Source: an uncultured Halobacteriales archaeon (GTDB taxonomy: Archaea; Halobacteriota; Halobacteria; Halobacteriales; Hikarchaeaceae). From it: a stretch of 46,105 bases of DNA. A model generated the notes under the pieces. The model was not told where the DNA came from. It made no database searches and saw only the letters and a program-made list of their open reading frames with translations. Shown piece by piece: positions 5,395-31,639 of the stretch (position 1 is its first letter; every line of letters starts with the position of its first letter). The stretch spans positions 1 through 46,105 of the forward strand of contig CAZVOR010000001.1 of the NCBI GenBank assembly GCA_964628745.1, given 5' to 3'. The position numbers and the translations under genes are program-made.

Positions 5395-6750
5395 ATGGAA
5401 GCGACCGAGCGGCTCGCGGCGTTCGTGGTCGAGGCGGACCTGGACGACGTGCCAGATGCGGCCCGGACCCACGCGCGGCGGGCCGTCAAGGACTACCTCG
5501 GGGTGGCGCTGTTCGGCTCGACCCACGCCGTCGGCGAGCGGCTGGCGCGGTACGTCGAGCGATTCGAGCCGGGCGACGGCGCGACGCTGCTCGGCGGGGG
5601 GACGGCGAGCCCGACCGGCGCGGCGCTGGCCAACGGCGGGTTCGGGCACGCCGTCGACTACGACGACACCTTCGAATCCATCGTCATCCACCCCACGTCC
5701 CCGGTCTTCCCGGCCGCCCTGGCCGCCGCCGAGCACGCCGACGGCTCGGGCCGGGACGTCCTCTCCGCGTACATGCTCGGCGCCGAGGCGGCCTATCGCG
5801 TCGGCCACGCGACCTACCCGGCCCACTACGACCAGGGCTTTCACGCCACGGGGACGGTCGGCACGTTCGGCGCCGCGGCGGCCGCGGGGTCGGTGCTCGG
5901 CCTCTCGACCGACGAGCTCCGGTGGGCCTTCGGCGTCGCCGCCTCGGCGTCCTCCTCGCTGAAGAAGAACTTCGGGTCGATGACCAAGCCCTACCACGCC
6001 GGGCACGCCGCGCAGGCCGGCCTGCGGGCCGCCCTGCTCGCCGCCGACGGCTTCACCGCCGACCCGGACATCCTCGAGGGGCCCATCGGCTACGGCGCCG
6101 TGATGACACCGGACGGCTCGTACGACCCATCCGAGGTCACCGACGGGCTCGGCGAGACCTGGGCCGTCGAGGACGTCGGATTCAAGCCGTACCCCTCCGG
6201 AGTCATCACGCACGCGGCGATGGAGGCGATGCGCCGGCTCGTCGTCGAGCACGACCTCGAGCCGGCCGATGTCGAGCGCGTCGTGGCGACGCTCGACGAC
6301 GCCGCCTCGGAGATGCTGCACCACGAGCAACCGGCCGACGCGCTGCAGGCGAAGTTCTCCATCGAGTTCTGCCTGGCGGCCGTACTGCGCGAGCGCGACG
6401 TCGGCATCCACGAGTTCACCGACGCGTACGTCGCCGAGCCGGCCACCCGGGAGGCAGTCGCGCTGGTCGAGCGGGCGTTCGAGCCGAACCTCTTCGGCGG
6501 CGAGTTCGCCGGCTACGGCGCGCGGGTGATCGTCGAGACGGTCGACGGCGAGCGGTACGTCGAGGAGGAGCGCCGGGCGCCGGGCGCGCCGTCGAACCCG
6601 CTGCCCGCCGAGCGCTGGGACGCCAAGTACGCCGAGTGCGCGGGGGCCGCCCTGTCGGCGGACGCGGCCGAGCGGGCCGCCGCCGCGGTCGAGTCCCTCG
6701 GGGAGCCGGGCTCGCTCGACTCGCTGCTGTCGGCCGTGCGGACCGGATAG
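5395..6750 (+). CDS. MmgE/PrpD family protein 1 (2-methylcitrate dehydratase superfamily)
   Basis: Length 451 aa. Family landmarks: HAVDYDDT, FHATGTVGTFGAAAAAG, SMTKPYHAGHAAQAG, GFKPYPSG. Confidence 0.9.
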   Translation: MEATERLAAFVVEADLDDVPDAARTHARRAVKDYLGVALFGSTHAVGERLARYVERFEPGDGATLLGGGTASPTGAALANGGFGHAVDYDDTFESIVIHPTSPVFPAALAAAEHADGSGRDVLSAYMLGAEAAYRVGHATYPAHYDQGFHATGTVGTFGAAAAAGSVLGLSTDELRWAFGVAASASSSLKKNFGSMTKPYHAGHAAQAGLRAALLAADGFTADPDILEGPIGYGAVMTPDGSYDPSEVTDGLGETWAVEDVGFKPYPSGVITHAAMEAMRRLVVEHDLEPADVERVVATLDDAASEMLHHEQPADALQAKFSIEFCLAAVLRERDVGIHEFTDAYVAEPATREAVALVERAFEPNLFGGEFAGYGARVIVETVDGERYVEEERRAPGAPSNPLPAERWDAKYAECAGAALSADAAERAAAAVESLGEPGSLDSLLSAVRTG

Positions 6751-6824
6751 GTCGACGGCCGGGCCGGGAGCAATCGCGGCCATCGCTGCGCCGACGTCAA
6801 GCGCCGTCGCTGGGGCGGTGGCGC

Positions 6825-6837
6825 GAAGAAAAACGGG
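6825..6837 (-). terminator. possible oligo-T archaeal terminator downstream of the substrate-binding protein gene
   Basis: The minus strand reads CCCGTTTTTCTTC about 20 nt after the stop at 6853-6855. Confidence 0.35.
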
Positions 6838-6852
6838 TGCGGTGTTGCTGCG

Positions 6853-8421
6853 TTACCGCCGGCCGGCCTGGGCGAGGAGGTCGTTTATCTCCTGAGCCGC
6901 GATGTCGGTGGCCTCCTCGATGGACGTCCCCTCCTGGAGGATGCGCTGGTGCATCCGGAACGGGATGTCGTAGGTGATGGCGCCGGCGGAGGGCACCGCG
7001 GGGATGGAACCCGGCGTGGCCTCGTTGAGGGTGCGCTGGCAGGCGCCGATCCAGAAACGCTCGTGCATCTCCGTCTCGGTGAAGAAGTCGGCTTCGTCCA
7101 GCGCGGCCGGGTCGACTGGGACCCACCCCAGCTCCTGAGCGTTGCCCAGCCCGTTCTCGGGCTCGGCGACCCAGTAGTCGCAGAACTCGACGGCCGCATC
7201 CCTGCGCTCCTGATTCCAGTTGCCGCCTCCCGTGAACATCAGGCAGGGCAGCCACATCAGGCTGGCCACGCGCCCACCCTCGGAAAGGGCGTTGAACGGC
7301 ACGCTCCAGTGGTAGCCCTGATTCTGCATCAGGTCCTCCTGCTCGAGCAGGTAGTCGGCCCACAGGTCGGTGGAGTCCTGGATGTGGTTGCCGGCGTGCC
7401 GGCCACCCCACTGCAGCGTGGTTGACTCCTCGTCGCCGATGTTCAGCGCGTCGGGGTTGTAGTAGCCCTTGTCGATGAACTCGACCTGGTGCTCGATGGC
7501 GCGGCGAGCCTCAGCCGTGTTGACGGTGGCCGCGTCGCCGGTGGCGTTGACGGCACCCGTCAGCGAACCCCCGAACTGCGGGAAGTAGTTGGCTAGGTAC
7601 TCCTCGTCCGAGCGCTTCATCCCCGTGCAGTCGGGGTAATTGCCGTCCTCCTGTCCCATCGACGAGTCTTGCAGCGCCTGGTAGAGCGCCTGGAGGTCGA
7701 CGGCCGGATCGCCCGAGCCCTCGTAGTAACCCTTCGACTCCGCCCCTGCGTTGCCATTGACGATGTCGGTGCTGAGACCGGCGTCCTCGATCCAGTCCGT
7801 CCGCCACGTCGGGAAGAACGGTCGGAGGCCAAGTGGCCAGGTCACGAGGTTGCCCTCCTCGCCTGTCGACTGTGCCCCCCACGTCCGGTGGAAGTCCATG
7901 ACCTTCTCGGACACGGCGTCCGCAGAGGCTGAGCCCTCGAACAGGTCGGTGATGTCCTGCCCGCCGCCCCCGGCCATCAGCTCGGGGTGCGTCATGACCT
8001 CGACCATGTGCGGGACGTTGTTCGCGGCCTGGGCGGCGCGGAACTCCCGCGGCGCGTCGACGTACGGGACGCCCCTGACGCTGACGTCGATGTTCAGCTC
8101 GGAGTTGACCTGCTCGAGGAACTGGTCGGTGTACTCGCGCTTGTTCTCCCCCTCGGTGTAGTAGGACAGCCAGATGCGGAGCTCGACCGGCCCGGCGCCG
8201 CCGGTCGAGCCGCCGCCGGTGTCCCCGCCGGTATCCCCGCCGCCGGTGTCGCCGCCACCGGTGTCGCCGCCGCCGGTGTCGCCACCATCATCACCCGGCC
8301 CGCCGGTACAGCCGGCGAGTCCGGTCGTCGTCAACACTGCGCCAGCGCCGGTGGCCTTCAGGAAGTTGCGGCGGCCGACCGGGCTGGTTCGCTTGGAACT
8401 GGACTCCTCATTCGGTGCCAT
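6853..8421 (-). CDS. ABC transporter substrate-binding lipoprotein, family-1 (CUT1 carbohydrate-type), Tat-exported
   Basis: Twin-arginine motif RRNFLKATGAGAVL followed by lipobox LAGC. A Gly/Asp/Thr linker follows, then about 450 aa of a solute-binding fold rich in W, Y and D. Confidence 0.9.
   Translation of the reverse strand: MAPNEESSSKRTSPVGRRNFLKATGAGAVLTTTGLAGCTGGPGDDGGDTGGGDTGGGDTGGGDTGGDTGGGSTGGAGPVELRIWLSYYTEGENKREYTDQFLEQVNSELNIDVSVRGVPYVDAPREFRAAQAANNVPHMVEVMTHPELMAGGGGQDITDLFEGSASADAVSEKVMDFHRTWGAQSTGEEGNLVTWPLGLRPFFPTWRTDWIEDAGLSTDIVNGNAGAESKGYYEGSGDPAVDLQALYQALQDSSMGQEDGNYPDCTGMKRSDEEYLANYFPQFGGSLTGAVNATGDAATVNTAEARRAIEHQVEFIDKGYYNPDALNIGDEESTTLQWGGRHAGNHIQDSTDLWADYLLEQEDLMQNQGYHWSVPFNALSEGGRVASLMWLPCLMFTGGGNWNQERRDAAVEFCDYWVAEPENGLGNAQELGWVPVDPAALDEADFFTETEMHERFWIGACQRTLNEATPGSIPAVPSAGAITYDIPFRMHQRILQEGTSIEEATDIAAQEINDLLAQAGRR
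8216..8287 (-). repeat. in-frame tandem repeat (one 12-nt unit, then four 15-nt units) encoding the GGDT linker of the binding protein
   Basis: CCGGTGTCCCCG / CCGGTATCCCCGCCG / CCGGTGTCGCCGCCA / CCGGTGTCGCCGCCG / CCGGTGTCGCCACCA on the plus strand. This translates to DGGDTGGGDTGGGDTGGGDTGGDTGG just after the lipobox. Confidence 0.85.
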
Positions 8422-8583: not shown

Positions 8584-9480
8584 TCAGTCGCCGGTCGCGT
8601 AGCGCTCCTCCCAGTCAGCGACGGTCGACAGCCCGGTCACCGCGTTGCGCCCCTCCCAGGTCACCAGTCGGTCCATGACGCCGGTCTGCGTGCCCGTCTC
8701 GACGATCTCGCCGTAGACGTCCTGCAGCGCCTTGAGCATCGCCTTGAAGCCGGTCGCGGGGAACAGCGCGAGGTCGTAACCAAGCGTCTCGAGTTCGTCA
8801 GCCGGGAGCATCGGCGTCTTCCCGCCCTCGGTCATGTTCGCCAGCATGGGCGCATCGATTCGCTCGGCCGCCTCGGCCAGCTCGTCGCGGCTCTCGGGCG
8901 CCTCGAAGAAGATGACGTCCGCGCCGGCATCGAGGTACGCCTCCGCCCGGTCGACGGCGTCGTCGAAGCCGCGGACGGTCCGGGCGTCGGTCCGCGCGAT
9001 GAGGACGAAGTCGTCGTCCGACCGTGCGTCGACCGCGGCGCGGAGCTTCGGGACCATCTGCTCGCGGGGGATGACGTCCTTGCCCTCGAAGTGGCCGCAG
9101 CGCTTCGGGAAGACCTGGTCCTCGATGTGGATGCCGGCGGCGCCCGCGCGCTCGAACTCCTCGACGGTCCGCCGGACGTTGATTGGATTGCCGTAGCCGG
9201 TGTCAGCGTCGCAGAACACGGGGACGTCCACGGCGGTGACCATCTGCCGGGCCCGTTCGGTCATCTCGGTCAGGGTCGTCAGCCCGACGTCGGGGTAGCC
9301 GTGCGTCGAGGTCGAGACGCTCGAGCCCGACATGTACACCACCTCGGCGCCGGCCTGCTGGGCGAGCTTGGCGCTCGCGGCGTCGTAGGCGCCCGGCGCC
9401 ACGATGATCTCGTCGTCGAACACCCGCTCGCGGAACGCCGTCGTCGCGCGCATGGCCCGGCCGAAGGGAGCCCCGGGCAT
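8584..9480 (-). CDS. isocitrate lyase / PEP mutase family protein, lyase-type (2-methylisocitrate-lyase-like)
   Basis: CDADTGYG, GIHIEDQVFPKRCGH (gating loop with the Cys typical of the C-C lyases, not of PEP mutases), LIARTDA. An alternative start is M10 (9453). Confidence 0.9.
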   Translation of the reverse strand: MPGAPFGRAMRATTAFRERVFDDEIIVAPGAYDAASAKLAQQAGAEVVYMSGSSVSTSTHGYPDVGLTTLTEMTERARQMVTAVDVPVFCDADTGYGNPINVRRTVEEFERAGAAGIHIEDQVFPKRCGHFEGKDVIPREQMVPKLRAAVDARSDDDFVLIARTDARTVRGFDDAVDRAEAYLDAGADVIFFEAPESRDELAEAAERIDAPMLANMTEGGKTPMLPADELETLGYDLALFPATGFKAMLKALQDVYGEIVETGTQTGVMDRLVTWEGRNAVTGLSTVADWEERYATGD

Positions 9481-9566
9481 AAGCGTTGACGAAGGAGCCG
9501 CACACCGTCCCCCGGGGCAATCCCCGCCTCGACGGTCGGTCGTCGAGGGGGCACCGCCACCAAATG

Positions 9567-9573
9567 TTTATAT
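9567..9573 (+). promoter_or_regulatory. TATA box (TTTATAT) for the 9597 small membrane protein gene
   Basis: Centred 27 nt upstream of ATG 9597. Confidence 0.45.
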
Positions 9574-9596
9574 CCGCGTCTCCGGAAAGGATACCC

Positions 9597-9926
9597 ATGA
9601 GCCAGGAGTTCGACGTCAGCGAGTTCCGGCAGAAGGACATCGTGGACTACTTGGACATGATCGTCAAGGGGCTGTACACCCTCGGCGCGCTGCTGTTCCT
9701 CGGGGGGTTATGGATCGACTGGCAGTCGCCCGGCGAGGTCGTCTTCAGCTTCCTCGTGTTTACCGACGAGCCGTACGCGAACAGCGGGCTGTTCATCATG
9801 GCCATCATCGTCATGGCCGTCGGATTCCTAATCTCCCAAATTGCCAACTTCATCGAGGAGCGCCGGTACGAGGAGCCGGAGGAGCAGACCCAGGAGTGGG
9901 TCGTGGACGTCCGCGCGGACCGGTAG
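9597..9926 (+). CDS. small membrane protein (109 aa, 2-3 TM, acidic tail)
   Basis: MSQEFDVSEF ... LYTLGALLFLGGLWI ... GLFIMAIIVMAVGFLISQI ... EERRYEEPEEQTQEW. ATG 9597 fits the TATA box; the upstream 37 codons of the track ORF are not coding-like. Confidence 0.6.
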   Translation: MSQEFDVSEFRQKDIVDYLDMIVKGLYTLGALLFLGGLWIDWQSPGEVVFSFLVFTDEPYANSGLFIMAIIVMAVGFLISQIANFIEERRYEEPEEQTQEWVVDVRADR

Positions 9927-10389
9927 CCCCCGAGATTCGATTCCAGCCACAGGCGTCGAGGCTGGCCGCGACCGACCCCGACATCCGCTGGCTGTTCGGG
10001 ATCATCACGGCCAAGTTCGAACTCCGTTCCCTGGCCCGAAGCGCTCGTGACCATCGGACGGTCCCTGACCCGTCGCTTGGTCGGGCATCGAGATGGCCGT
10101 CAGCCGCCCAGCCCGGTAGAATGTTCCGACGAACGACTCAGGGTCACGAAGTCGCCGCGCCCGTCGTCCAGCGCCGACTCGGCGGTTGGCGTAGCCGCGC
10201 CGCCCGACCAGCGCTGGCCCATCGCTGGCGTCCCGGATGGCGGTCGACCCCCGAACCGCGGGGCGCGAACCCGGCGCGGTCGTGAGCGCGGCTGTGACGC
10301 ATCCGCCAGCCGTTCGCCGTCCGACACGTCGGCTCTGCTGTCGGCATCGGGAGAAGCGAGAGTAGGTGGGGGGCGCGGTCGGGTCGGCG

Positions 10390-11298
10390 TCAGCCCTTGA
10401 CGCCGGCGCCGGCGGACAGCCCCTCGACGAGGTACTTCTGCAGGTAGGCGTACATCAGGATGGGCACGATGAGCGTCAGGAAGATACCCGCCATGATGAA
10501 GTGGAAGTTCCTGACGAAGAACGTCCCGCGTAGCTCGATGATGCCCGGCGCGAGCGTCTTGTGGATGGGATCGTGCGCCATGATGAGCGCCATCACGTAG
10601 TTGTGCCACGCCAGCAGGAACGCCAGCAGGAACACCGACGCGATGGCCGGCCGGGACAGCGGCAGGATGACGCGGAAGAACGCGCCAACCTGGGTGCAGC
10701 CGTCGACCCGCGCGGACTCCTCCAGGTTCTCCGGGAGGTCCTCGAAGAACCCGCGCAACAGCCAGATGTTGTACGGCAGCGTGAACGCGGTGAACGCCAG
10801 GATCAGCCCGATGTACGTGTTGATGAGGCCGATGTCGTTCATCAGCACGAAGATGGGGATGGCGATGAGCACGACCGGGAACATGAAGCCCGAGACCGAC
10901 AGTACGAACAGCCCGTTCTTCCAGGGGAACTGCAGCCGGGCGAACGAGTAGGCGGCGAAGATGGCCGCCACGGTCGCCAGCAGCGCGGTCCCGACGGAGA
11001 CGACGAACGTCGCCAGCGTGTACTCGATGAACGGGAAGGCGTGCCACATCGTCCGCCACGCAAGCCGGCCGGCCCACGGTTCTGGCTGGAACGTCACGAA
11101 CGGGATGCCCATCGTCGTCGTGAAGATGCCTTCCGGCGTCTTCAGGGAGTTGACGAAGCTGTAGTAGACCGGGCCGAGCATCCAGACCACCAGCACGGCG
11201 AGCATGACCCACTTCACGACCGGCTTGACGTGCTTCTCCCAGGTCAGCCCCAGCAGGGTCGAGGACCGCTCGAATGTGCGGCCCGATTCGGTTGCCAT
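10390..11298 (-). CDS. ABC transporter permease (CUT1, MalG-like)
   Basis: Six predicted TM segments and an EAA loop (EESARVDGCTQVGAFFRVILPLSRPA). The start overlaps the upstream permease stop (TGATG). Confidence 0.9.
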   Translation of the reverse strand: MATESGRTFERSSTLLGLTWEKHVKPVVKWVMLAVLVVWMLGPVYYSFVNSLKTPEGIFTTTMGIPFVTFQPEPWAGRLAWRTMWHAFPFIEYTLATFVVSVGTALLATVAAIFAAYSFARLQFPWKNGLFVLSVSGFMFPVVLIAIPIFVLMNDIGLINTYIGLILAFTAFTLPYNIWLLRGFFEDLPENLEESARVDGCTQVGAFFRVILPLSRPAIASVFLLAFLLAWHNYVMALIMAHDPIHKTLAPGIIELRGTFFVRNFHFIMAGIFLTLIVPILMYAYLQKYLVEGLSAGAGVKG

Positions 11299-12242
11299 CA
11301 GTCGTAGTCCCCCGTCTCGGTCTTAATCCACACGAAGATCAGTGGGATCAGCACCAGCGCGAACATCATCCCGAGCGCCGCGGCGCGGCCGAGGCTCCAG
11401 TTGACGAACGCCTGCTTGAAGATGATGACCGCGATGAACGAGGTGTAGTTCACCGGGCCGCCCTGGGTGACCCCCCATGGTATCGCCAGCTTCCCGACGG
11501 TGAACACCGTCCGGATCATCACGACCGTCACCAGCACCGTCCGCAGGTGCGGAATGGTGATGTAGCGGAACCGCTGGACCGGCCCCGCGCCGTCGACGGT
11601 CGCCATCTCGTACAGCGAGCTGGGGATGGACTGGACGCCGGCCAGGAAGACGATGTACATGAAGCCGAAGTCACGCCACACCTTCGCGATGACGACGCCC
11701 CAGAACGCCCATGGCGTGTTGGACGTGATGCCCCCCGCCTGCGGGATGGGGAAGAAGGTATCCATGATCTGGTAGATGACGCCGTACGTGTCGCCCTGCT
11801 CCATGATGCCGAACAGCAGTCCGGCGGCGATTGGCGGGGCCGCGTAGCCCGCGAGCATGATGCCCCGGAAGATGGGCCGTGCGGGCATCGCCTCGTTCAT
11901 CGTCAGCGCGGCCGCGAGTGCGACCACGAGGTCGAACGGGACGACGACCAGCTCGTACAGCAGCGTCATCTTGATGCTGAACAGCATCAGGTCGGCGCCG
12001 CCGCCGAACAGCCAGTACTCGTAGTTCGTCAGCCCGACCCACGGGTTGAGCTGGTCAGGGTTGAGGGTGAACTGCCGGAACGACAGCAGGAACCCGTACT
12101 GTATCATCGGGATGACCACGATGAGCGTCAGCAACACGAGCGTCGGCAGCAGGAACAGCAGGCCCTGCAGGCCACCGTACTCCTCGAGTACGCGATCGGC
12201 CAGGCCACGTTCCCGGCTGAGTTGCTCCTCTATGGTCGCCAT
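11298..12242 (-). CDS. ABC transporter permease (CUT1, MalF-like)
   Basis: EAA loop YEMATVDGAGPVQRFRYITIPHLR and multiple TM helices. Confidence 0.9.
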   Translation of the reverse strand: MATIEEQLSRERGLADRVLEEYGGLQGLLFLLPTLVLLTLIVVIPMIQYGFLLSFRQFTLNPDQLNPWVGLTNYEYWLFGGGADLMLFSIKMTLLYELVVVPFDLVVALAAALTMNEAMPARPIFRGIMLAGYAAPPIAAGLLFGIMEQGDTYGVIYQIMDTFFPIPQAGGITSNTPWAFWGVVIAKVWRDFGFMYIVFLAGVQSIPSSLYEMATVDGAGPVQRFRYITIPHLRTVLVTVVMIRTVFTVGKLAIPWGVTQGGPVNYTSFIAVIIFKQAFVNWSLGRAAALGMMFALVLIPLIFVWIKTETGDYD

Positions 12243-13822: not shown

Positions 13823-13830
13823 ACACCCCT

Positions 13831-13858
13831 ATCCTTTGTATTAGGATTAATAAATCCT
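13831..13858 (-). promoter_or_regulatory. ABC operon promoter: TATA box embedded in overlapping palindromes
   Basis: The plus strand reads ATCCT-TTGTATT-AGGATT-AATA-AATCCT. This gives two inverted repeats: ATCCT/AGGAT, and AGGATT/AATCCT with the AATA spacer. TTAATAAA (13847-13854, minus-strand TTTATTAA) is centred 28 nt upstream of ATG 13822. Confidence 0.45.
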
Positions 13859-14248: not shown

Positions 14249-14256
14249 GTTATTAC
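14249..14256 (+). promoter_or_regulatory. TATA-like box (GTTATTAC) for CoA-transferase 1
   Basis: The box begins 30 nt upstream of ATG 14279. The ACAD promoter at 26119 has the same GTTATT hexamer at the same spacing. Confidence 0.4.
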
Positions 14257-23917: not shown

Positions 23918-26039
23918 CCCGACGGACGGGGCGGACGGCCCGGCGGACCGACCAGCCGGGGGCGGCCGGCCGGACCTCGACCCGCTCGTCGAGCCCGACT
24001 CGCTCGCCGTCGTCGGGGCGAGCCCCGACTCGTGGTACGCCTCGCGACTCATCGACAACCTGCTCGACTACGGCTACGCCGGCGACGTCTACTTCGTCAA
24101 CCCCGGCCGGGAGGAGGCCTGGGACCGGCCCTGCTACGACAGCCTCTCGGACGTCCCGGCGGTCGTCGACCTCGCCGTCGTCTCCATCCCGCGGGAGCCC
24201 GCCGTCGAGGTGGTCCGCGAGGCGGGGGAGATGGGGGTACCGGCGGCGCTGGTCATCACGGCCGGCTTCGCCGAGGCCGACGAGCGCGGGGAGGCGCTCC
24301 AGGCCGAGCTTTCGGCCATCGCCGAGGAGTCGGGCATCCGGGTCTGCGGGCCGAACACCATCGGCTACGCGAGCATGCACGCCGAGACGGTGCTCACGGC
24401 GACCTGTTCCCGCCGGCCCGAGCCGGGACGCATCGGCCTGGTGAGCCAGTCCGGCGCGCTCGCGTTCACGACGTTCTACGAGCGGGCGACCGACGAGGAC
24501 GTCGCGTTCTCGCACATCGTCTCGACGGGCAACGAGGCCGACCTGGCGCTCACCGACTACGTCGAGTACCTCGCGGCCGACGACCGCGTGGACGTCATCT
24601 GCTGCTACGTCGAGGGGCTCGCCGACGCCCGGCGGTTCGTCGAGGTCGCCGCCCGGGCGACGCGCTCGGGGACGCCCGTGCTCGCCGTCAAGGTCGGCCG
24701 CTCCGAGGTCGCCGACGCGGCGACGCTCTCGCACACGGGGTCGACGACCGGCAACGACGCGGTCTGGGACGCCGCGCTGGCGCAGGCCGGCGTCCAGCGG
24801 GTCGCCGACGTCCCGGACCTCGTCGGGCTCGCGAGCGTCCACGCGCGCTACGACCCGCCGGCGGGCGATCGCGTCTGCGTCCTCTCGACCAGCGGCGGGC
24901 TCGCCAGCCTTCTGGCGGATTTCGTCAGCGAGCGAGGGCTCGAACTGCCGCCGCTGTCGGCGGAGACCGAGCGTGCGCTGCTCGACATGGAGGACCTGCT
25001 GACGTTCGGCTCGCTGCCGAACCCCGTCGACATCCGCGGCTACGGCTCGTACGTGCTCGACGACATCGCCGACGTCGTCCTCGCCGACGACGCGTTCGAC
25101 GCGTACCTCGTCGCCATCGGGATGTCGGCGGTCGACGACCACGCCAGCGACGTCGCCGCGGCGATAGAGCGCGTCGTCGAGCGCGCGGACGCCCCCGTGC
25201 TCGTCTGCTGGACGGGGCGGAAGGAGCCCGGCGTGCTCCCCGACCCGCAGCCCTACGAGCGACTGCGCGAGTCGGTGCCGCTGTTCTACGACCCAGAGCG
25301 CTGCGTCGAGGCGCTGGCGTCGCTGGTCCGCGCGCGGGAGGCCCGAGAGCGGGTCCGCGAGCCGCTGGCGCTGCCCGAGCCGAGCCCCGACGCGGCGGAC
25401 CTGCCGGCGGACTCGGTGCTGGACTGGGCGGCCGCCGCCGGGCTGCTCGCCGAGCACGGCGTCGAGGTCGAGCCGAGCCGCGTGGTCGAGGACGCCGACG
25501 GGGCCGCCGCGGCCGCCGGCGAGCTCGGCTACCCCGTGGCGATGAAGGTCGACTCGCCCGCCGTGCCGCACCGCAACCGGGTCGGCGGGGTCGCGCTCGA
25601 CGTGCCCGACGCCGACGCCGCCCGGACGGCGTACGAGGACATCGTCGCGAACGTGGCCGATGCCGTCCCCGACGCCGGGGCGGAGCGGGTCGTCGTCCAG
25701 CGACAGGTCGAGGACGGCGCCGAGGCGCTGGTCGGCGCGCTCCGCGACGAGGGGTTCGGGCCGGTGCTCGCCGTCGGCTCCGGCGGGGTGCTCGTCGAGT
25801 CGGTCGACGACCGCGCCCTGCGGCTGGCGCCGGCCCGGGTCGAGGACGCCCGCGAGGCCATCGGGGAGACCACGCTGGCCGAGCGGCTCGGCGAGGCCGA
25901 CCGGGCGGCGCTGGCCGAGCTGGCCGCGGCGGCCAGCCGGCTGGCCGCCGAGCGGCCCGTCGCCGAGCTCGACCTCAACCCGGTCATCGTGGCGGACGGC
26001 CGCTGCCACGTCGTGGACGCGCTGGTGCGGACGCGGTAG
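23910..26039 (+). CDS. ADP-forming acyl-CoA synthetase (acetate--CoA ligase [ADP-forming] family, fused alpha-beta)
   Basis: CoA-binding start SLAVVGAS, GPNTIGY, and phosphohistidine loop TLSHTGSTTG. The C-terminal ATP-grasp half contains GYPVAMKVDSP. The GTG start overlaps the CoA-transferase 2 stop by 8 nt. Confidence 0.9.
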   Translation: MTDPTDGADGPADRPAGGGRPDLDPLVEPDSLAVVGASPDSWYASRLIDNLLDYGYAGDVYFVNPGREEAWDRPCYDSLSDVPAVVDLAVVSIPREPAVEVVREAGEMGVPAALVITAGFAEADERGEALQAELSAIAEESGIRVCGPNTIGYASMHAETVLTATCSRRPEPGRIGLVSQSGALAFTTFYERATDEDVAFSHIVSTGNEADLALTDYVEYLAADDRVDVICCYVEGLADARRFVEVAARATRSGTPVLAVKVGRSEVADAATLSHTGSTTGNDAVWDAALAQAGVQRVADVPDLVGLASVHARYDPPAGDRVCVLSTSGGLASLLADFVSERGLELPPLSAETERALLDMEDLLTFGSLPNPVDIRGYGSYVLDDIADVVLADDAFDAYLVAIGMSAVDDHASDVAAAIERVVERADAPVLVCWTGRKEPGVLPDPQPYERLRESVPLFYDPERCVEALASLVRAREARERVREPLALPEPSPDAADLPADSVLDWAAAAGLLAEHGVEVEPSRVVEDADGAAAAAGELGYPVAMKVDSPAVPHRNRVGGVALDVPDADAARTAYEDIVANVADAVPDAGAERVVVQRQVEDGAEALVGALRDEGFGPVLAVGSGGVLVESVDDRALRLAPARVEDAREAIGETTLAERLGEADRAALAELAAAASRLAAERPVAELDLNPVIVADGRCHVVDALVRTR

Positions 26040-26148: not shown

Positions 26149-27351
26149 ATGACCGTCTCGTTCGACACGGTGGCGCTCACCGAGTCACAGCGGCTCGTCC
26201 GGAAGAGCATCCGCGAGCTGATGGCCGAGTTCGACCGCGAGTACTGGCGCGAGCGCGCCCGGACCGGCGAGTACCCGCAGGACTTCGTCGACGAGCTGGC
26301 GGCCGGCGGCTGGCTGGGCGCGCTGCTGCCGGAGGCCTACGGCGGCGCCGGGATGACGACCGAGGAGGTCGTCGTGATGATGGAGGAGATCGCCGCGGGC
26401 GGCGGCGGGTTCTCCGCCGCCCAGGCCGTCCACGGCGGCATCTACAACTCCGTGCCGCTCGTGAAGTACGGCAGCGAAGCGCTCAAGGAGCGGCTGCTCC
26501 CAAAGGTCGCCGACGGCGAGGTCGCCATCCAGGCGTTCGGGCTCACGGAGCCCAACGCGGGCTCGGACTCGACGGCCATCGAGACGCGCGCGGAGCGCGA
26601 CGGCGACGAGTACGTCATCGACGGCGGGAAGATATGGACCTCGCGGGTGGACGCCTCCGACTACCTGCTGCTCGTCGCTCGGACGACCCCGCGGGACGAG
26701 GTCGAGAAGCGCACGCGCGGCATCTCGATGTTCCTCGTCGACCTCGCGGACGCCGAGTCGCAGGGCGCCTTCGAGAAGGAGGCCATCCCGAAGTCCGTGA
26801 GCGAGTTCGTCCACTCCTACCAGCTGTGGTTCGACGGGCTTCGCGTGCCGGCCGAGCACCTCGTCGGCGAGGAGGGCCGCGGATTCTACCAGGTGCTCGA
26901 CGGCCTCAACGAGGAGCGACTGGTCATCGCCGCGGAGTGCCTCGGGCTCGGGGAGGTCGCCCTCGAGCGCGGCGTCGAGTACGCCGGCGAGCGCGAGGTG
27001 TTCGGCCATCCCATCGGGCAGAACCAGGCCGTCCAGCACCCGCTGGCCGCGGCGTACGCCCACCTCGTCGCCGCCAGGGAGGTCACCTACTCGGCCGCGG
27101 CGCGCCTCGAGTCGCTCGACCAGAAGGCCGCCGGCGCCCGCGCGAACGCCGCGAAGTACCTCGCGGCGGAGGCCGCCTTCGAGGCCGCCGACGCCGCCGT
27201 CCAGACCCACGGCGGCTTCGGGGTCGCCACGGAGTACGACGTCGAGCGCTACTTCCGGGAGGCCCGGCTGACCCGGCTGGTGCCCATCACCCAGCAGCTC
27301 GTGCTCAACTACCTCGGCGAGCAGGTGCTCGGGCTCCCGCGGTCGTACTGA
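26149..27351 (+). CDS. acyl-CoA dehydrogenase family protein
   Basis: FGLTEPNAGSDS, DGGKIWTS, FGHPIGQNQAVQHPLA, THGGFG. The C-terminal YEGT-type catalytic Glu motif appears replaced (RLVPITQQLVLN). Confidence 0.9.
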   Translation: MTVSFDTVALTESQRLVRKSIRELMAEFDREYWRERARTGEYPQDFVDELAAGGWLGALLPEAYGGAGMTTEEVVVMMEEIAAGGGGFSAAQAVHGGIYNSVPLVKYGSEALKERLLPKVADGEVAIQAFGLTEPNAGSDSTAIETRAERDGDEYVIDGGKIWTSRVDASDYLLLVARTTPRDEVEKRTRGISMFLVDLADAESQGAFEKEAIPKSVSEFVHSYQLWFDGLRVPAEHLVGEEGRGFYQVLDGLNEERLVIAAECLGLGEVALERGVEYAGEREVFGHPIGQNQAVQHPLAAAYAHLVAAREVTYSAAARLESLDQKAAGARANAAKYLAAEAAFEAADAAVQTHGGFGVATEYDVERYFREARLTRLVPITQQLVLNYLGEQVLGLPRSY

Positions 27352-27414: not shown

Positions 27415-27840
27415 TCACATCCCGTCCGAGCGGACGGTCATGATGGCGCCGCTCGCGAGCATCAGTAGCGCCAGCGTGACCATCCCGGCGTCCCAACCCA
27501 TGCCCATCATCCCGCCATCCATCATGCCCCCGCCCATACCGCCGCCATCCATCATGCCGCCGTCCATCGCCCCGCCGGGCATCGCGACCATCCAGAGCTG
27601 GTTGGCCAGCATCAGCACCGCGTAGCCGATCATCAGCGGACCGCTGGCGTCCCCCAGCCGGTCCGCCCACGAGGACAGCAGCACGGCGCCGTGGAGCACG
27701 ACCACGACGCCGAGCAGGAGCATCAGCCACGCCCCGGCGGTCCGTCCGGTCGAGCCGACGAGCACCGAGTAGCCGCCGCTGGCGAACGCGATGGCCGCGC
27801 CGTACAGCCGCGTCGACGAGGTGGAGCGTGAGCCGTCCAT
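27415..27840 (-). CDS. small membrane protein (141 aa, about 4 TM) with a Met/Gly/Asp-rich loop
   Basis: MPGGAMDGGMMDGGGMGGGMMDGGMMGMGWDAGM lies between hydrophobic helices. ATG 27840 is 47 nt downstream of the enolase-2 stop on the same strand. Third-position GC is high. Confidence 0.6.
   Translation of the reverse strand: MDGSRSTSSTRLYGAAIAFASGGYSVLVGSTGRTAGAWLMLLLGVVVVLHGAVLLSSWADRLGDASGPLMIGYAVLMLANQLWMVAMPGGAMDGGMMDGGGMGGGMMDGGMMGMGWDAGMVTLALLMLASGAIMTVRSDGM
27512..27558 (-). repeat. 17-nt perfect direct repeat inside the Met/Gly-rich loop coding region
   Basis: CCGCCATCCATCATGCC occurs at 27512-27528 and 27542-27558 (30-nt period, in frame). Each copy encodes GMMDGG. Confidence 0.85.
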
Positions 27841-27887: not shown

Positions 27888-29015
27888 TCAGTCGACGCGG
27901 AGCGCCTCGACCGCGTCGTCGTCGAGCTCGACGCCCAGGCCGGGGCCCTCCGGCGCCGGGATGGTGCCGCCGTCGCGGACGTAGATGGCCTCCGGGTTGG
28001 CGACGTACGGCCCCGCGACGTACTCGCCCGGGTCGTCGACGGTGTCGTCGAGCACCGCGAATTCGATGAGCCGGCAGGCCCGCGAGGCGGCCGCGACGTG
28101 GAGGCTCGCCGCGTAGTTGACCGCCGGCCCGAGCGCGTGGGGCACCAGCCGCTTGTTGAACGCCTCGACGAGCGTCGCGACGCGGCGCGCGCCGGTCACG
28201 CCGCCGACGTAATCCAGCGACGGCTGGTAGATCTCCAGTGCGTTCGCCCGGAGGTGGTCCACCGCGCGGTAGTGCGGCGTGTGCGTCTGGAAGCCCGAGA
28301 TGGGCACGGAGACCCGCCGGTTGAGCTCGGCCTGGCCCTCGACGTCCGTGTGGGAGATGGGCTCCTCGAACCACTCGAGCTCGAGCTCGCTCGCGGTCTT
28401 CGCGACGGCCAGCGCGTCGTCGAACTCGTAGGAGGTGTTGGCGTCGATGGCCAGCCCGAAGTCGTCCGGGATGCCGTCGGTGATGGTCCGCATCCGCTCG
28501 CGGTCCCGCTCGACGCCGAAGCCGGCACCGACCTTCATCGCCGCAAAGCCCTTCTCCGCGAGCCAGTTCGCCGACTCGGCGAGCTCCTCGGGGGTCTTCG
28601 AGACCGGGAACGTCGCGTACGCCGTCACCTCGTTGACGGGGCCGCCGAGCAGGTCGGCGACCGGCCGGCCTGCGTGCTTGCCCTTGATGTCCCAGAGCGC
28701 CTCGTCGAGCGCCGACAGGGCCCCCCAGGCGCCGGCGCGCTTGACGTGGACGTACAGCTCGTGCCAGCGGGCCGTCGCCGCGAGCGGATCCTTCCCGACG
28801 ATGTGCTCGCCCATCGCCTCGATGCTCTCGGCGAGAAAGCGGTTGTGCTCGACCGACCGGTAGAACGACTCGCCGAGGCCGGTGAGCCCGGCGTCGGTGT
28901 GGACCTTCACGACGACCGACGAGATCTCGATCGACCGGTCGGCGACCTCCGCCGGCAGCGAGGCGGCGTCGACGGCGCTCCCCAGGACGACGGTCTCGAT
29001 GTCCGTTATCTCCAT
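27888..29015 (-). CDS. enolase-superfamily protein 2 (MR/MLE family), divergent catalytic set
   Basis: AIDANTSY, WFEEP and LVPHALG match the family. By eye alignment with paralog 1 it has KVG instead of KTK, SGFQ instead of GGE, and QPS instead of QPD. Confidence 0.9.
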   Translation of the reverse strand: MEITDIETVVLGSAVDAASLPAEVADRSIEISSVVVKVHTDAGLTGLGESFYRSVEHNRFLAESIEAMGEHIVGKDPLAATARWHELYVHVKRAGAWGALSALDEALWDIKGKHAGRPVADLLGGPVNEVTAYATFPVSKTPEELAESANWLAEKGFAAMKVGAGFGVERDRERMRTITDGIPDDFGLAIDANTSYEFDDALAVAKTASELELEWFEEPISHTDVEGQAELNRRVSVPISGFQTHTPHYRAVDHLRANALEIYQPSLDYVGGVTGARRVATLVEAFNKRLVPHALGPAVNYAASLHVAAASRACRLIEFAVLDDTVDDPGEYVAGPYVANPEAIYVRDGGTIPAPEGPGLGVELDDDAVEALRVD

Positions 29016-29038
29016 CGTACGCGATGACTCGAAGGCCC

Positions 29039-29046
29039 GTTATTAG
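29039..29046 (-). promoter_or_regulatory. TATA-like box (CTAATAAC on the minus strand) for enolase-superfamily gene 2
   Basis: Centred about 27 nt upstream of ATG 29015. It lies inside the track's extended MFS-2 ORF, which argues against ATG 29024 as the MFS-2 start. Confidence 0.4.
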
Positions 29047-29149
29047 GCTTACCGAGTCCGCGTGGGGGGACGTCGACCGGCTCCAGCCCGCTGGCGGCGG
29101 CCGTCCGCGGTCGAAAGCGTCATGGCGGGGCCCACCGCTGGTCGGGGCC

Positions 29150-30319
29150 GTGCAGCTGCGCTACCGGCACACGGTGCTCGCGCTGTGCCTGGCGGCGTAC
29201 TTCGCCATCCGCTTCGCTCAGCTGGTCATCAGCCCGGTCGTCACCGCCATCATGGAGGAGTTCTCGGTCACGAGCGGCGCCATCGGGCTGGCGCTGACGG
29301 GGATGTGGGTGGCCTACGCGCTCGCCCAGCTGCCCAGCGGCGTGCTCGGCGACCGGTTCGGCGAGCGCCGCGTCGTCCTGCTGGCGCTCGGGCTCGCCGC
29401 GGCCGGCAGCCTGGCCGCGGGCGCGGCGCCGGCGTTCGCCGCGTTCGTCGCCTTCGTCGTCGTGCTCGGCGCCGGCGCGGGCCTGTACTACAACGTCGCG
29501 ACGGCGCTGCTGACGCGTCTGTTCGACCAGCTCGGCCGGGCAGTCGGCACCCACCGCATCGGCAGCCAGGTCGCCGGCCTCGACGCGCCGGTCGCCGCCG
29601 CGCTCGCGCTGGCGGCCGGCTGGCGCGCCGCGCTGTGGGTCGGGGCGGCCGTCGCCGGGCTGGTGCTCGCCGCGTTCGCCGTCGCCGTCCGGCCGACGCC
29701 ACCCGTCAACCCCGGGACGGCGATGCGGGACGCCGTCGACCTGCGGACGCTCGGGGCGCTGCTGCGCCGGCGGCCCATCGCCTTCGCCGCCGGGGTGGCC
29801 ATCCTCGGCGAGTTCGTGCTGCTCGCCACGATGTCATTCCTCCCGACGTTCCTCATGGAGCACCACGCGCTGTCCGTCGGGGGTGCGAGCCTGCTCTTTT
29901 CGGGCTACTTCGCGGTCGTGGCCGCCGGGCAGCCGGCCAGCGGCTGGCTGTCCGACCGGCTGGGCCGCGACGCGGTGCTGGCGATGGCGATGCTGGCGGG
30001 CGTCGCCGGCTACGCGCTGCTGGTCGTCGGGACGACGTTCGCGAGCGCGGTGCCCGCCGTCGCGCTCGTGGGCTTCGCGATGAGCTGGGGCGCGCCGCTG
30101 CAGTCGCGGGTGATGGACGACCTCGGGGCTGCCGAGCGGGGCGTCGGCTTCGGCCTCGTCCGGACGCTGTACATCCTCGGCGGGGCGACGGGCAACGCGG
30201 CCGTCGGGGCCGTCGCCGACGTCGCCGGCTGGGGGCCGGCGTTCGGCGTGCTCGCGGTCCTCCTGGCGGTCGCGTTCGCGGCCATCGTCGGGAACCGGCT
30301 GCTCCGGCTCGGCGCGTGA
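29150..30319 (+). CDS. MFS transporter 2
   Basis: About 12 TM helices and motif A (LPSGVLGDRFGERRVV). The start is uncertain: the track ORF begins at ATG 29024, but its first codons are AT-rich and overlap the divergent TATA box. GTG 29150 (VQLRYRHTVLALCL) gives a typical MFS N-terminus. Confidence 0.8.
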   Translation: MQLRYRHTVLALCLAAYFAIRFAQLVISPVVTAIMEEFSVTSGAIGLALTGMWVAYALAQLPSGVLGDRFGERRVVLLALGLAAAGSLAAGAAPAFAAFVAFVVVLGAGAGLYYNVATALLTRLFDQLGRAVGTHRIGSQVAGLDAPVAAALALAAGWRAALWVGAAVAGLVLAAFAVAVRPTPPVNPGTAMRDAVDLRTLGALLRRRPIAFAAGVAILGEFVLLATMSFLPTFLMEHHALSVGGASLLFSGYFAVVAAGQPASGWLSDRLGRDAVLAMAMLAGVAGYALLVVGTTFASAVPAVALVGFAMSWGAPLQSRVMDDLGAAERGVGFGLVRTLYILGGATGNAAVGAVADVAGWGPAFGVLAVLLAVAFAAIVGNRLLRLGA

Positions 30320-30448
30320 GCCACGGCGCCCGGTTCGAGACGGACCCGGACGCCCGCCGGCAGCAGCTATAAGCCGACGCGGGCGAGCCCTCGACCGTGC
30401 GCCCGAAGACGTCAGCGCCCCACGCACCCGCCGCGGAGTGGTCCGACC

Positions 30449-31639
30449 GTGCTGCTCGATGACCTGACCGTCCTCGACGTCACGCAGGTCGTCGCCGGCT
30501 CGTTCGCCTCGATGTCGCTGGCCGACCTCGGGGCGGACGTGCTGAAGGTCGAGCGCCCCGACGGCGGCGACATCGGCCGGTCGAACCCGCCGCACGTCGC
30601 CGGACGGAGCGCCTACTTCGCCTCAGTCAACCGGAACAAGCGCTCGCTGGCGCTGGACCTGTCGACCGAGCGTGGCCGCGACGCCGTGCTCGACCTGGCC
30701 GCCGCGGCCGACGTGCTCGTCGAGAACCACCCGCCGGGCCGGATGGACCGCTTCGGTCTCGGCTACGACGCCGTCGCCGAGCGCAACCCCGGCGTCGTCT
30801 ACTGCTCGATCACCGGCTTCGGCCAGACCGGCCCGTACGCCGACGTCCCGGCGCTCGACATGGTGGCCCAGGCGACCAGCGGCCACATGGGACTGACCGG
30901 TCCCCCCGACGGGCCGCCGCACCGCGCCGGGCTCCCCATCGGCGACCTCGCCGGGGCGGCGTACGGGGTCCAGTCGGTGCTCGCGGCGCTGCTCCGCCGC
31001 GAGCGTACGGGCGAGGGCGCCTACCTCGACGTCTCGATGACCGACTCGCTGGTCGCCTGGCTGTCGGTCCGGGCCGGCTACACGTTCGCGACGGGCGAGC
31101 CCTACCCGCGGCTGGGCAACGAGCTGCGCGAGTTCGTCCCGTACAACGTCTACGCGACCGCCGACGGCCACCTCGCGGTCATCGTCGCGACCGACCGCCA
31201 CTGGCGACGGCTCTGTGCGGCCCTCGACCGGCCGGAGCTCGGCGAGGACGGGCGGTTCGCGACGGTCGACGGCCGGCGGGAGCGCCGGGGAGCGGTCAAC
31301 GAGCTGCTCGGGGAGACGCTCGCCGAGCGACCGACGGCGGACTGGTTCGAGCGGCTGGCCGACCGCGGCGTCCCCGCCGCGCCGGTCCACGACACGGCGA
31401 GCGTCTGGGAGGACGAGCAGGTGCAGGCCAGGGAGCTCTACCGACCCATGCCGGTCGACGGCGAGCCGTTCGGCGCCATCGCGTATCCCGCGCGGGTCCG
31501 CGGCGAGCGCTTCGAGCTCGACCGCGGCGTGCCGGCCGTCGGGGAGCACAGCCGGGAGGCGCTCGGTGAGGTCGGCTACGACGACGCGACGGTCGACGAG
31601 CTGGTCGACGCCGGCGTCGTCGGCACGCCCGACGGCTGA
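30449..31639 (+). CDS. type III (CaiB/BaiF family) CoA-transferase 3
   Basis: LDDLTVLDVTQVVAGSFASMSLADLGADVLKVERP, VNRNKRS, and VPALDMVAQATSGHMGLTG (catalytic Asp motif). GTG start. A TATA-like GCTATAAGCC lies about 78 nt upstream, which implies a leader. Confidence 0.9.
   Translation: MLLDDLTVLDVTQVVAGSFASMSLADLGADVLKVERPDGGDIGRSNPPHVAGRSAYFASVNRNKRSLALDLSTERGRDAVLDLAAAADVLVENHPPGRMDRFGLGYDAVAERNPGVVYCSITGFGQTGPYADVPALDMVAQATSGHMGLTGPPDGPPHRAGLPIGDLAGAAYGVQSVLAALLRRERTGEGAYLDVSMTDSLVAWLSVRAGYTFATGEPYPRLGNELREFVPYNVYATADGHLAVIVATDRHWRRLCAALDRPELGEDGRFATVDGRRERRGAVNELLGETLAERPTADWFERLADRGVPAAPVHDTASVWEDEQVQARELYRPMPVDGEPFGAIAYPARVRGERFELDRGVPAVGEHSREALGEVGYDDATVDELVDAGVVGTPDG

Follow-up and report, generated by a model that had tools for sequence, protein, structure and literature searches.

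A 46,105-nucleotide stretch of DNA from an uncultured Halobacteriales archaeon (contig CAZVOR010000001.1, positions 1 to 46,105; henceforth the window) carries a block of carboxylate and CoA-ester genes whose core consists of a MmgE/PrpD-family protein (PrpD#2, g16; 16697-18097, plus strand) and an acyl-CoA dehydrogenase (ACAD, g23; 26149-27351, plus strand), and these two resemble the methylsuccinate isomerase and dehydrogenase pair of bacterial itaconate degradation (Gonner et al. 2025, PMC12290011). Since the same gene set recurs in other genomes, we conclude that positions 4176-27351 are a conserved island of several haloarchaeal families and not a chance assembly. We take the block to be an archaeal variant, within a modular island, of a pathway type that was itself characterised in 2025 (PMC12290011). 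Judging from homology, gene context and active-site residues, 4176-27351 may well be a modular catabolic island for short substituted succinates (branched C5-C6 di/tricarboxylic acids), handled largely as CoA thioesters by a core resembling the bacterial pair. A previous reading of this DNA, made from the sequence only, had described a block at 5395-31639 with no assignable pathway and had excluded degradation of the itaconate type. The first statement holds for the rest of the island, but the core can be assigned by homology and context to the methylsuccinate/itaconate type, and the resemblance of PrpD#2 and the ACAD to the bacterial pair speaks against the exclusion.

In the itaconate clusters of Pseudomonas and Cupriavidus, the MmgE/PrpD protein is a (S)-(R)-methylsuccinate isomerase (Msi) and the neighbouring ACAD is a (RS)-methylsuccinyl-C4-CoA dehydrogenase (Mcd); Msi genes always adjoin Mcd genes (PMC12290011). 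The record of the P. aeruginosa cluster (PA0878-PA0883) lists a MaoC protein, an ACAD, a VOC protein, a PrpD protein, a CaiB/BaiF transferase, a CoA ester lyase and a TRAP transporter, and its Ict is a type III transferase. The window ACAD (Pfam Acyl-CoA_dh N, M and C) aligns with PA0879 (Mcd) over its full length with 47% identity and 341 bits, and is 47-48% identical to Mcd-type ACADs of Shinella and Bosea, whereas no solved ACAD comes as close as PA0879, the best reaching about 216 bits. PrpD#2, which also has its family's Pfam domains, is 45% identical to a PrpD-type protein encoded on Shinella plasmid pShin-09. That protein sits in a canonical Ccl-PrpD-ACAD-MaoC cluster with a CoA-transferase (CoAT), in which Mcd, Ict, Ich and Ccl are respectively 76%, 48%, 46% and 42% identical to those of Pseudomonas. 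Because the Shinella PrpD keeps this company, the PrpD#2 subfamily is, by homology and context, the putative second PrpD type that partners Mcd.

The window encodes a further MmgE/PrpD protein (PrpD#1, g06; 5395-6750, plus strand; Pfam MmgE_PrpD_N and _C), 36% identical to PrpD#2. In a neighbour-joining tree, calculated without support values, the haloarchaeal PrpD#2 proteins group with those of Shinella, Bosea and Acetobacteraceae, with PA0881 (which, like Q0K3E6, is a characterised Msi) next, and PrpD#1 groups with iminodisuccinate (IDS) epimerase. The nearest solved structures of both paralogues are IDS epimerase, the B. subtilis "IRG1" protein and cis-aconitate decarboxylases; the best PDB match of PrpD#1 is IDS epimerase 2HP3 (180 bits, about 32% identity). 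The proposed isomerase residues of P. aeruginosa Msi are H88, E91, H102, Y148, H152, K202 and K266 (PMC12290011), and those of Agrobacterium tumefaciens IDS epimerase (2HP0/2HP3), H85, D88, H99, Y145, H150, K198 and K266, are kept in both window paralogues. Indeed, the seven residues (H, D, H, Y, H, K, K), including the tyrosine that serves as second base, are invariant in the alignment across the PrpD#1 and PrpD#2 clades; in E. coli PrpD, five of the seven aligned positions carry other residues. Neither paralogue shows similarity to E. coli PrpD by BLAST, and neither matches an NCBIfam model at 1e-10. Judged by these residues, both PrpD paralogues carry a two-base His/Tyr site of the epimerase type, which speaks against the dehydratase activity that had been considered for them. 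Overall identity to IDS epimerase is low, the window holds no C-N lyase partner, and the context of PrpD#1 is a PhnA-like hydrolase, an ABC importer and, in related islands, a TcuA-like gene.

The pairing of PrpD#2 with the ACAD is found well beyond the window. Orthologues of the two directly adjoin each other in seven related loci (L010, L022, L025, L026, L045, L051 and L054), and in Halorubrum species a stretch of about 5 kb includes PrpD#2 and an ACAD (71-76% identical), which TRAP genes and a family I transferase accompany. When the context of PrpD#2 loci was surveyed by clustering open reading frames and then running Pfam on the recurrent extra families, the pair was often found to be followed by a MaoC gene resembling mesaconyl-CoA hydratase, a CoA-transferase and a TAXI-TRAP transporter. 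In Halolamina salifodinae (L010) these form one operon, PrpD#2-ACAD-MaoC (mesaconyl-CoA-hydratase-like)-family I CoA-transferase-TAXI-TRAP solute-binding protein (SBP)-permease, L025 and L058 are similar, and a Natronorubrum plasmid carries ACAD-MaoC-type III CoAT-hypothetical-thiolase-PrpD. Of the five functions in the bacterial cluster, these compact haloarchaeal operons are predicted to mirror four. They appear to be undescribed so far, since a published survey by hidden Markov model and gene context placed Msi almost exclusively in Pseudomonadota, with only two Thermoplasmatales among Archaea (PMC12290011); we found no literature specific to haloarchaeal MmgE/PrpD, itaconate, methylsuccinate, tricarballylate or PhnA. 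One of these loci, L045 (CAYYRO010000103.1, labelled uncultured Methylophaga sp.), has a CoAT-HMGL-like-MaoC-LLM-PrpD#2-ACAD cluster; its PrpD groups with those of haloarchaeal L051 and L054 in the tree, and the contig may be a mis-binned haloarchaeal fragment.

To delimit the conserved unit, we scanned one genome per GTDB species with PrpD#2, which returned 491 relatives, retained 80 loci together with their flanks (at most 10 kb per side) and searched these by tblastn with all window proteins. The best PrpD#2 relatives are 66-69% identical, and every close relative belongs to Halobacteria. In 47 of the loci the PrpD#2 orthologue reaches 55% identity or more. Counting orthologues from 45% identity upwards in this set, we found the ACAD in 23, CoAT1 in 18, the crotonase-fold enoyl-CoA hydratase/isomerase (ECH) in 14, CoAT2 and the thioesterase in 13 each, the PhnA-like hydrolase in 10, PrpD#1 and the ADP-forming acyl-CoA synthetase (ACD) in eight each, the ABC genes in seven and the enolase-superfamily protein Eno1 in six; many of these loci lie on short contigs, so that the counts are lower bounds. 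Orthologues of about 15 window genes, 53-77% identical except for the small protein g09 (43%), are clustered on megaplasmids of Halomarina, Halorussus and Haladaptatus and in metagenome-assembled genomes of Haloferacaceae, and the same island, 30-35 kb long, is found on the PGAP-annotated plasmids of Halomarina sp. BND7, Halorussus aquaticus and Haladaptatus salinisoli. Despite rearrangement, at least three haloarchaeal families have kept about a dozen shared genes together in a span of 30 kb. The sequence-only reading had named a lack of conserved co-occurrence in related genomes as grounds for giving up the block; the neighbourhood comparison instead finds co-occurrence in related loci and plasmids, and that objection fails.

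In Halorussus and Haladaptatus the island reads PhnA-like gene, MFS transporter, isocitrate-lyase (ICL) family gene, Fe-ADH, MFS transporter, PrpD#1, (cupin), TcuA-like gene and two SBP genes; then hypothetical, two permeases, ATPase, hypothetical, CoAT1, hypothetical, PrpD#2, MFS transporter, (Ldh_2) and Iso_dh; and finally Eno1, CoAT, (thioesterase, HAD), ECH, CoAT2, ACD, ACAD, MaoC and IclR. Halomarina has most island genes in a different order and is without ACD and the thioesterase. Its proteins are 66% (ICL family), 74% (ACAD), 62% (PhnA-like), 68% (PrpD#1), 53% (SBP), 72-75% (permeases), 71% (ATPase), 43% (small membrane protein g09), 68% (PrpD#2), 68% (Eno1), 73% (ECH), 71% (CoAT2) and 76% (CoAT1) identical to those of the window. 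Orthologue identities overall are 59-63% for the PhnA-like hydrolase g05 (on island-bearing plasmids), 62-68% for PrpD#1 (g06), 46-53% for the SBP g07, 66-77% for the ICL-family protein g08, 72-86% for the permeases g10 and g11, 71-83% for the ATPase g12, 73-80% for CoAT1 (g14), 68-81% for Eno1 (g17), 62-73% for ECH (g20), 60-71% for CoAT2 (g21), 55-66% for ACD (g22) and 65-77% for the ACAD.

These comparisons shift both boundaries of the block as previously drawn (5395-31639). On the left, the conserved unit begins one gene further out, at the PhnA-like gene (g05; 4176-5243, minus strand), which is divergent from PrpD#1. On the right, synteny with the sister islands stops immediately after the ACAD, where those islands carry MaoC and IclR. 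The MaoC, IclR, TcuA, Fe-ADH, Ldh_2, Iso_dh and cupin genes of the sister islands were not found in the window by tblastn, in line with the reported absence of MaoC and IclR; the window has lost its MaoC and IclR genes or never carried them. At the very position where synteny ends lies orf27 (27415-27840, minus strand), which encodes a membrane protein with a Met/Gly-rich repeat (...MPGGAMDGGMMDGGGMGGGMMDGGMMGMG...) and has no homologue in the related loci and no Pfam match. The genes beyond it, Eno2, MFS2, CoAT3 and DoxX, form a variable tail outside the conserved island. Eno2 (g25; 27888-29015, minus strand; enolase superfamily, MR/MLE, by Pfam) has orthologues about 60% identical in unrelated contexts, beside a TTT transporter and IclR in Halalkalicoccus and among sugar-acid genes in Natronococcus. 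For MFS2 (g26; 29024-30319, plus strand; Pfam MFS_1) the related loci hold just 29-36% identical paralogues, and the nearest plasmid homologues of CoAT3 (g27; 30449-31639, plus strand; Pfam 1.9e-122), in Natrinema (55%), adjoin a CoA ester lyase, a citrate symporter and an IclR gene. The DoxX-like membrane protein (g28; 31717-32331, plus strand) has a weak Pfam DoxX score (23.4 bits, cut-off 23.6) and no homologue in the related loci. Inside the block, the luciferase-like (LLM) oxidoreductase, probably F420- or FMN-dependent (g19; 20754-21722, minus strand; Pfam Bac_luciferase; 161.6 bits against TIGR03619, cut-off 166.9), is likewise not island-conserved, the related loci having just 27-35% identical paralogues.

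All the gene families first listed for the block were confirmed by Pfam where they had been placed, the quoted motifs are literally present, and the paralogues are as distant as described (36% identity between the PrpD proteins, 34% between Eno1 and Eno2, 37-42% among the three CoATs). No block enzyme reaches the curated cut-off of an NCBIfam equivalog model. The three CoATs have the CoA_transf_3 fold (Pfam E-values 1e-115 to 1e-122; 6e-122 for CoAT1, g14, 14279-15538, plus strand) and keep their Asp motifs: GYDLLVQG in CoAT1 at residue 236 (counted from a start at 14045), GLDLILQA in CoAT2 (g21; 22622-23917, plus strand) at residue 156 and ALDMVAQA in CoAT3 at residue 135. The nearest relative of CoAT1 and CoAT2 is human SUGCT, which transfers CoA from succinyl-CoA to dicarboxylates (best PDB matches 9BR6, 293 bits, and 9BR7, 248 bits), and the two score far under the cut-offs of the models for mesaconate, glutarate, oxalate, formyl and carnitine transferases. 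The substrates of the PrpD family share a succinate backbone; the suggestion that di/tricarboxylic acids are processed partly as CoA thioesters fits this and the kinship with SUGCT.

CoAT2 belongs to a same-strand unit that begins with ECH (g20; 21837-22619, plus strand; Pfam ECH_1, 1.6e-54) and continues with CoAT2, ACD (g22; 23910-26039, plus strand) and the ACAD, separated in turn by a 2-bp gap, an 8-bp overlap and a 109-bp gap; CoAT2 orthologues always adjoin an ECH gene. ACD is a fused ADP-forming acyl-CoA synthetase (Pfam CoA_binding_2, Succ_CoA_lig and ATP-grasp_5), a divergent paralogue of archaeal ADP-forming acetyl-CoA synthetases, and scores far under the NCBIfam acetate-CoA ligase cut-offs. 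A 4HBT/YbgC-type acyl-CoA thioesterase (g15; 15622-16023, minus strand; Pfam 4HBT_2 and 4HBT) reaches 53.5 bits against TIGR00051. The C-C lyase of the ICL/phosphoenolpyruvate (PEP)-mutase family (g08; 8584-9480, minus strand; Pfam PEP_mutase and ICL) has the loop KRCGH, is 41% identical to E. coli PrpB and scores 339 bits against TIGR02317 (prpB), just under the cut-off of 354.4. Its PDB scores are similar for 2-methylisocitrate lyases, the petal death protein and an entry annotated as CPEP mutase, and it scores poorly against the PEP mutase and phosphonopyruvate hydrolase models; by its motif, g08 is a predicted Cys-loop lyase.

How might these genes work together? The scheme builds on the observed gene content, conservation, homology and active-site residues, from which we infer the substrate, the direction of the steps and the roles of ECH, ACD, the thioesterase and the ICL-family protein. 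PrpD#2 would act on a free acid, converting the two enantiomers of a 2-substituted succinate into each other; methylsuccinate is the simplest candidate. CoAT1 or CoAT2, both SUGCT-like, would form the CoA ester with succinyl-CoA as the probable donor, and ACD may also form or prime it. The Mcd-like ACAD would then desaturate the ester to an enoyl-CoA of the mesaconyl-CoA type. For the hydration that should follow, MaoC is available in the sister islands and the crotonase ECH is the one candidate hydratase in the window. We rejected the notion of ECH as a plain MaoC replacement, because the sister islands carry both. The second transferase (CoAT2), ACD or the thioesterase would probably recycle CoA, leaving a free hydroxy-acid for the PrpB-like lyase to split into pyruvate and a short acid; we propose these last two steps because the inspected islands contain no CoA-ester lyase. 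Alternatively, the last step would fall to a lyase encoded elsewhere. PrpD#1, the PhnA-like hydrolase, the ABC importer and the Eno1-MFS1 pair would be further modules for related substrates. In two sister islands (L083, 9046-10482, and L084, 9444-10883) a TcuA-like FAD-dependent "tricarballylate dehydrogenase" is encoded beside PrpD#1 and a cupin gene; this may point to a second route, beside that of the ACAD, in which a substituted succinate is desaturated without CoA.

Measured against the bacterial itaconate/methylsuccinate clusters of P. aeruginosa and C. necator (Ich, Mcd, Msi, Ict, Ccl; PMC12290011), the island shares a PrpD protein with the H, D/E, H, Y, H, K, K site, an ACAD, type III CoA-transferases and a dicarboxylate uptake system; the sister archaeal clusters add MaoC right after the ACAD, and the compact versions a TRAP-type transporter. 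It differs in that the window adds a crotonase, ACD, a thioesterase and a PrpB-like lyase, and in that PrpD#2 is nearer the Shinella subfamily than PA0881, to which it is 34% identical. This low identity to the characterised Msi is one of several points that weigh against the substituted-succinate proposal. PrpD#2 and the ACAD lie 8 kb apart in the window, and the published survey reports no Msi in Halobacteria (PMC12290011). The MaoC-type hydratase Ich was not found in the window by tblastn, and the archaeal MaoC of the sister islands is not similar to Pseudomonas Ich (PA0878). A CoA-ester (citramalyl-CoA) lyase was not seen among the called genes of the window by Pfam, as had been reported before, nor in the inspected related islands. 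The three CoATs are equally distant from Ict (PA0882; 33-37% identity), none standing out, and g08 is closest to 2-methylisocitrate lyase, whose substrate is no intermediate of the methylsuccinate pathway. Lastly, since sub-modules occur independently elsewhere, the island may serve several substrates.

Two other known routes invite comparison. In the Bbs pathway of benzylsuccinate beta-oxidation, the type III CoA-transferase BbsEF, the ACAD BbsG and the crotonase BbsH act without a PrpD-type isomerase. The logic is alike, in that a 2-substituted succinate passes through a succinyl-CoA-dependent type III transferase, an ACAD and a crotonase-fold hydratase; the window differs in having no thiolase or SDR genes, and CoAT1 reaches just 154 bits against the benzylsuccinate CoA-transferase subunit 9FN0. 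The haloarchaeal methylaspartate cycle (Mct, Mch, Mcl; PMC5592240) operates in the same organisms and also combines a type III succinyl-CoA:dicarboxylate CoA-transferase with mesaconyl-CoA chemistry. Its exclusion by the sequence-only reading stands: the window CoATs score 262-303 bits against the Mct model NF041294, whose cut-off is 700, and neither Pfam on the called genes nor tblastn revealed Mch, Mcl, glutamate mutase or methylaspartase in the window.

The strongest alternative to the substituted-succinate proposal is a mosaic of independent small catabolic modules, each with its own transporter and substrate, accreted on megaplasmids and chromosomal islands and conserved through transfer of the whole island. 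We regard this as a genuine possibility, if the less probable one, and to a degree it is compatible with the substituted-succinate proposal. Each island has at least four uptake systems, and the intergenic regions share no operator motif. Gene order is reshuffled between the lineages of the PrpD#2-anchored loci, and modules stand alone elsewhere: IclR-MFS-CoAT1 in Hrr. lacusprofundi, ECH-CoAT2 with a TTT transporter in Natronococcus, ACAD-IclR in Halobaculum and the compact PrpD#2-ACAD-MaoC-CoAT-TRAP operon. Because MFS-CoAT1, ECH-CoAT2 and ACAD-MaoC-CoAT-PrpD occur separately, the genes may not form a single linear pathway. Accretion of unrelated modules is harder to reconcile with the dozen or so genes that stay within 30 kb in at least three families, with the single IclR gene that ends the island in Halorussus and Haladaptatus, with the confinement of the PhnA-like gene among haloarchaeal plasmids to the five of our plasmid collection that carry the island, and with enzyme families that all act on carboxylates or CoA esters.

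The PhnA-like hydrolase itself (alkaline-phosphatase superfamily; Pfam Phosphodiest, 3.6e-32) might suggest that the left part of the island (g05, PrpD#1, the ABC importer and the PEP-mutase-superfamily protein g08) catabolises a phosphonate, for instance an alpha-phosphono-carboxylate such as phosphonoacetate or a phosphono-substituted succinate, releasing phosphate and an acid for the CoA module. The only PDB matches of g05 are the phosphonoacetate hydrolase (PhnA) entries 1EI6 of P. fluorescens and 3SZY of S. meliloti (214 and 199 bits; 36-38% identity), with which its metal-ligand, Thr-nucleophile and K-D-K motifs align; in PhnA the two lysines of the last motif bind the carboxylate. The bacterial plasmid homologues of g05 are all annotated phnA, the gene strictly co-occurs with the island, and the ATPase g12 scores 352 bits against the PhnT2 model. 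We nevertheless consider this explanation unlikely: g05 reaches 245 bits against TIGR02335 (hydr_PhnA), well under the equivalog cut-off of 407.55, in a functionally promiscuous superfamily, and sits in a carboxylate/CoA island without PhnW, PhnY or PalB partners; g08 has a lyase Cys loop and scores poorly against the phosphonate-enzyme models; and the ATPase similarity is generic for CUT1 systems. A sugar-acid, uronate or aldarate route, with import of a sugar acid or lactone by the CUT1 ABC or MFS transporters and dehydration or cycloisomerisation by the enolase-superfamily enzymes, seems similarly unlikely. Eno1 (g17; 18176-19318, minus strand; Pfam MR_MLE_N and _C) has its best PDB matches in 4GGB/4HPN (277 bits) and 5OLC (245 bits), a galactarolactone cycloisomerase and a 3,6-anhydro-D-galactonate cycloisomerase; the permeases of the relatives are annotated as carbohydrate ABC permeases, and a tartrate-dehydrogenase-like gene, missing from the window, adjoins Eno1 in the sister islands. 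Such a route would cover at most the Eno1-MFS1 and Eno2-MFS2 pairs and leave the PrpD, CoAT and ACAD genes unexplained. The enolase-family proteins fall far below the NCBIfam cut-offs (best scores about 200 and 158 bits against 311-750), so that only family-level Pfam models are reached, and the window has no sugar or aldehyde dehydrogenase, in agreement with the initial dismissal of a Weimberg-type route, nor a KDG-type dehydratase, aldolase or kinase. For propionate, a variant methylcitrate cycle that pairs a PrpD-like dehydratase with the PrpB-like lyase and draws citrate synthase and aconitase from elsewhere would account for the closeness of g08 to PrpB but is highly improbable. The PrpD paralogues, which have the epimerase-type residue set, are unlike the 2-methylcitrate dehydratase of E. 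coli prpBCDE; PrpC, PrpE and aconitase are absent from the window and the sister islands, no called window gene having a citrate-synthase or aconitase domain by Pfam, and we rejected the cycle on these grounds, as the sequence-only reading had done for want of methylcitrate synthase and aconitase.

Few pools of catabolic enzymes without an assigned role are as large as those of the MmgE/PrpD proteins and the type III CoA-transferases. If the substituted-succinate proposal is correct, haloarchaea would hold a catabolism of branched C5-dicarboxylates, or of related substituted succinates, in rebuilt form: the Mcd-like dehydrogenase would be kept, the PrpD subtype would be different, there would be no citramalyl-CoA lyase, and the additions would be a crotonase, an ATP-conserving ACD and a PrpB-like lyase. 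The cultured strains with a plasmid-borne island, Halorussus aquaticus, Haladaptatus salinisoli and Halomarina sp. BND7, make its substrates directly testable, and the island flags a PhnA-like enzyme in a carboxylate/CoA setting. A bolder version, which we think rather doubtful as a whole, is an archaeal route for natural substituted succinates that dispenses with a CoA-ester lyase. Two PrpD epimerases would funnel the enantiomers of two substrates, one methylsuccinate-like and the other hetero-substituted, possibly phosphono-substituted and de-phosphonylated by the PhnA-like enzyme; the CoA ester would be oxidised and hydrated, CoA returned or conserved as ATP by ACD, and the hydroxy-acid cleaved by the PrpB-like lyase. 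This would amount to a new pathway topology and a new context for C-P or C-X cleavage in Halobacteria.

The block has the three uptake systems first ascribed to it, one CUT1-type ABC and two MFS transporters (Pfam). MFS1 (g18; 19491-20747, plus strand; Pfam MFS_1) is divergent from Eno1 and has true orthologues in only two of the related loci, L001 (70%) and L002 (61%). The ABC system comprises a solute-binding protein with a TAT signal (g07; 6853-8421, minus strand; Pfam SBP_bac_8, weak, and TAT_signal), two CUT1-type permeases (g10 and g11; 10390-11298 and 11298-12242, minus strand; Pfam BPD_transp_1) and a MalK/UgpC-like ATPase (g12; 12299-13468, minus strand; Pfam ABC_tran, OB_MalK and TOBE_2) that scores 430.4 bits against NF008653 (UgpC), with a cut-off of 432. 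Three small conserved membrane-protein genes had been overlooked: g09 beside the ABC operon (9564-9926, plus strand), orf13 at the head of the ABC operon (13532-13822, minus strand) and a gene with hydrophobic segments directly upstream of PrpD#2 (16183-16650, plus strand). None has a Pfam domain, and the sister islands hold all three at the same positions, annotated as hypothetical: g09 is 43-47% identical to its counterparts in Halorussus and Halomarina, orf13 is 42% identical to an 88-residue protein of Halorussus, and the product of 16183-16650 is 44% identical (tblastn) to a Halorussus protein. These proteins may be accessory subunits of transporters.

Since the window has a G+C content of about 73% (72-77%), which crowds the raw list of open reading frames with spurious frames, genes were called by codon-position G+C (third-position G+C, GC3, of at least 0.85) and then checked with Pfam. 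Gene starts were refined against annotated orthologues, which placed the start of CoAT1 at 14279 instead of 14045 and that of Eno1 at 19318, and set the spans of the thioesterase and the left-flanking hydrolase to 15622-16023 and 4176-5243. Between 8000 and 14000, G+C falls to 65-68%. We rejected recent transfer as the cause and attribute the dip to amino-acid composition, because GC3 holds at 0.91-0.95 and it is codon positions 1 and 2, in membrane proteins, that account for the fall. Within this region, 463 bp between the convergent g09 and permease genes (9927-10389) contain no convincing open reading frame, tblastx conservation there being limited to the permease C-terminus; a gap of similar size is present in Halorussus and Halomarina. 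In the divergent promoter region of the ABC operon and CoAT1 (13823-14278), the 9-mer ATACAAAGG occurs once per strand (13833-13841, minus; 14240-14248, plus), near AT-rich TATA-like boxes, and nowhere else in the window. We rejected it as a shared operator or promoter motif, since 11 of 100 shuffles also gave two matches and the pair is thus not significant. An 8-mer comparison across all intergenic regions returned only G+C-rich chance words and no shared motif.

The flanks of the window appear chromosomal: they encode PurA, Trm112 and members of the Pfam families DUF7524 and DUF7527, both of them halobacterial. About 2 kb to the right of the block, 33122-34113 encodes a HAD-family hydrolase, 35-37% identical to a type II haloacid dehalogenase inside the sister islands, and a small winged-helix protein, a possible local regulator, whose weak TrmB/GntR-like matches do not reach the Pfam cut-offs. 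Further right, 34209-45195 holds genes unrelated to the block, for a CARDB-domain protein, an MMPL/RND-type transporter, a GYD-domain protein, a protein with four rhodanese domains, and an ABC ATPase together with a 476-residue protein without any Pfam domain.

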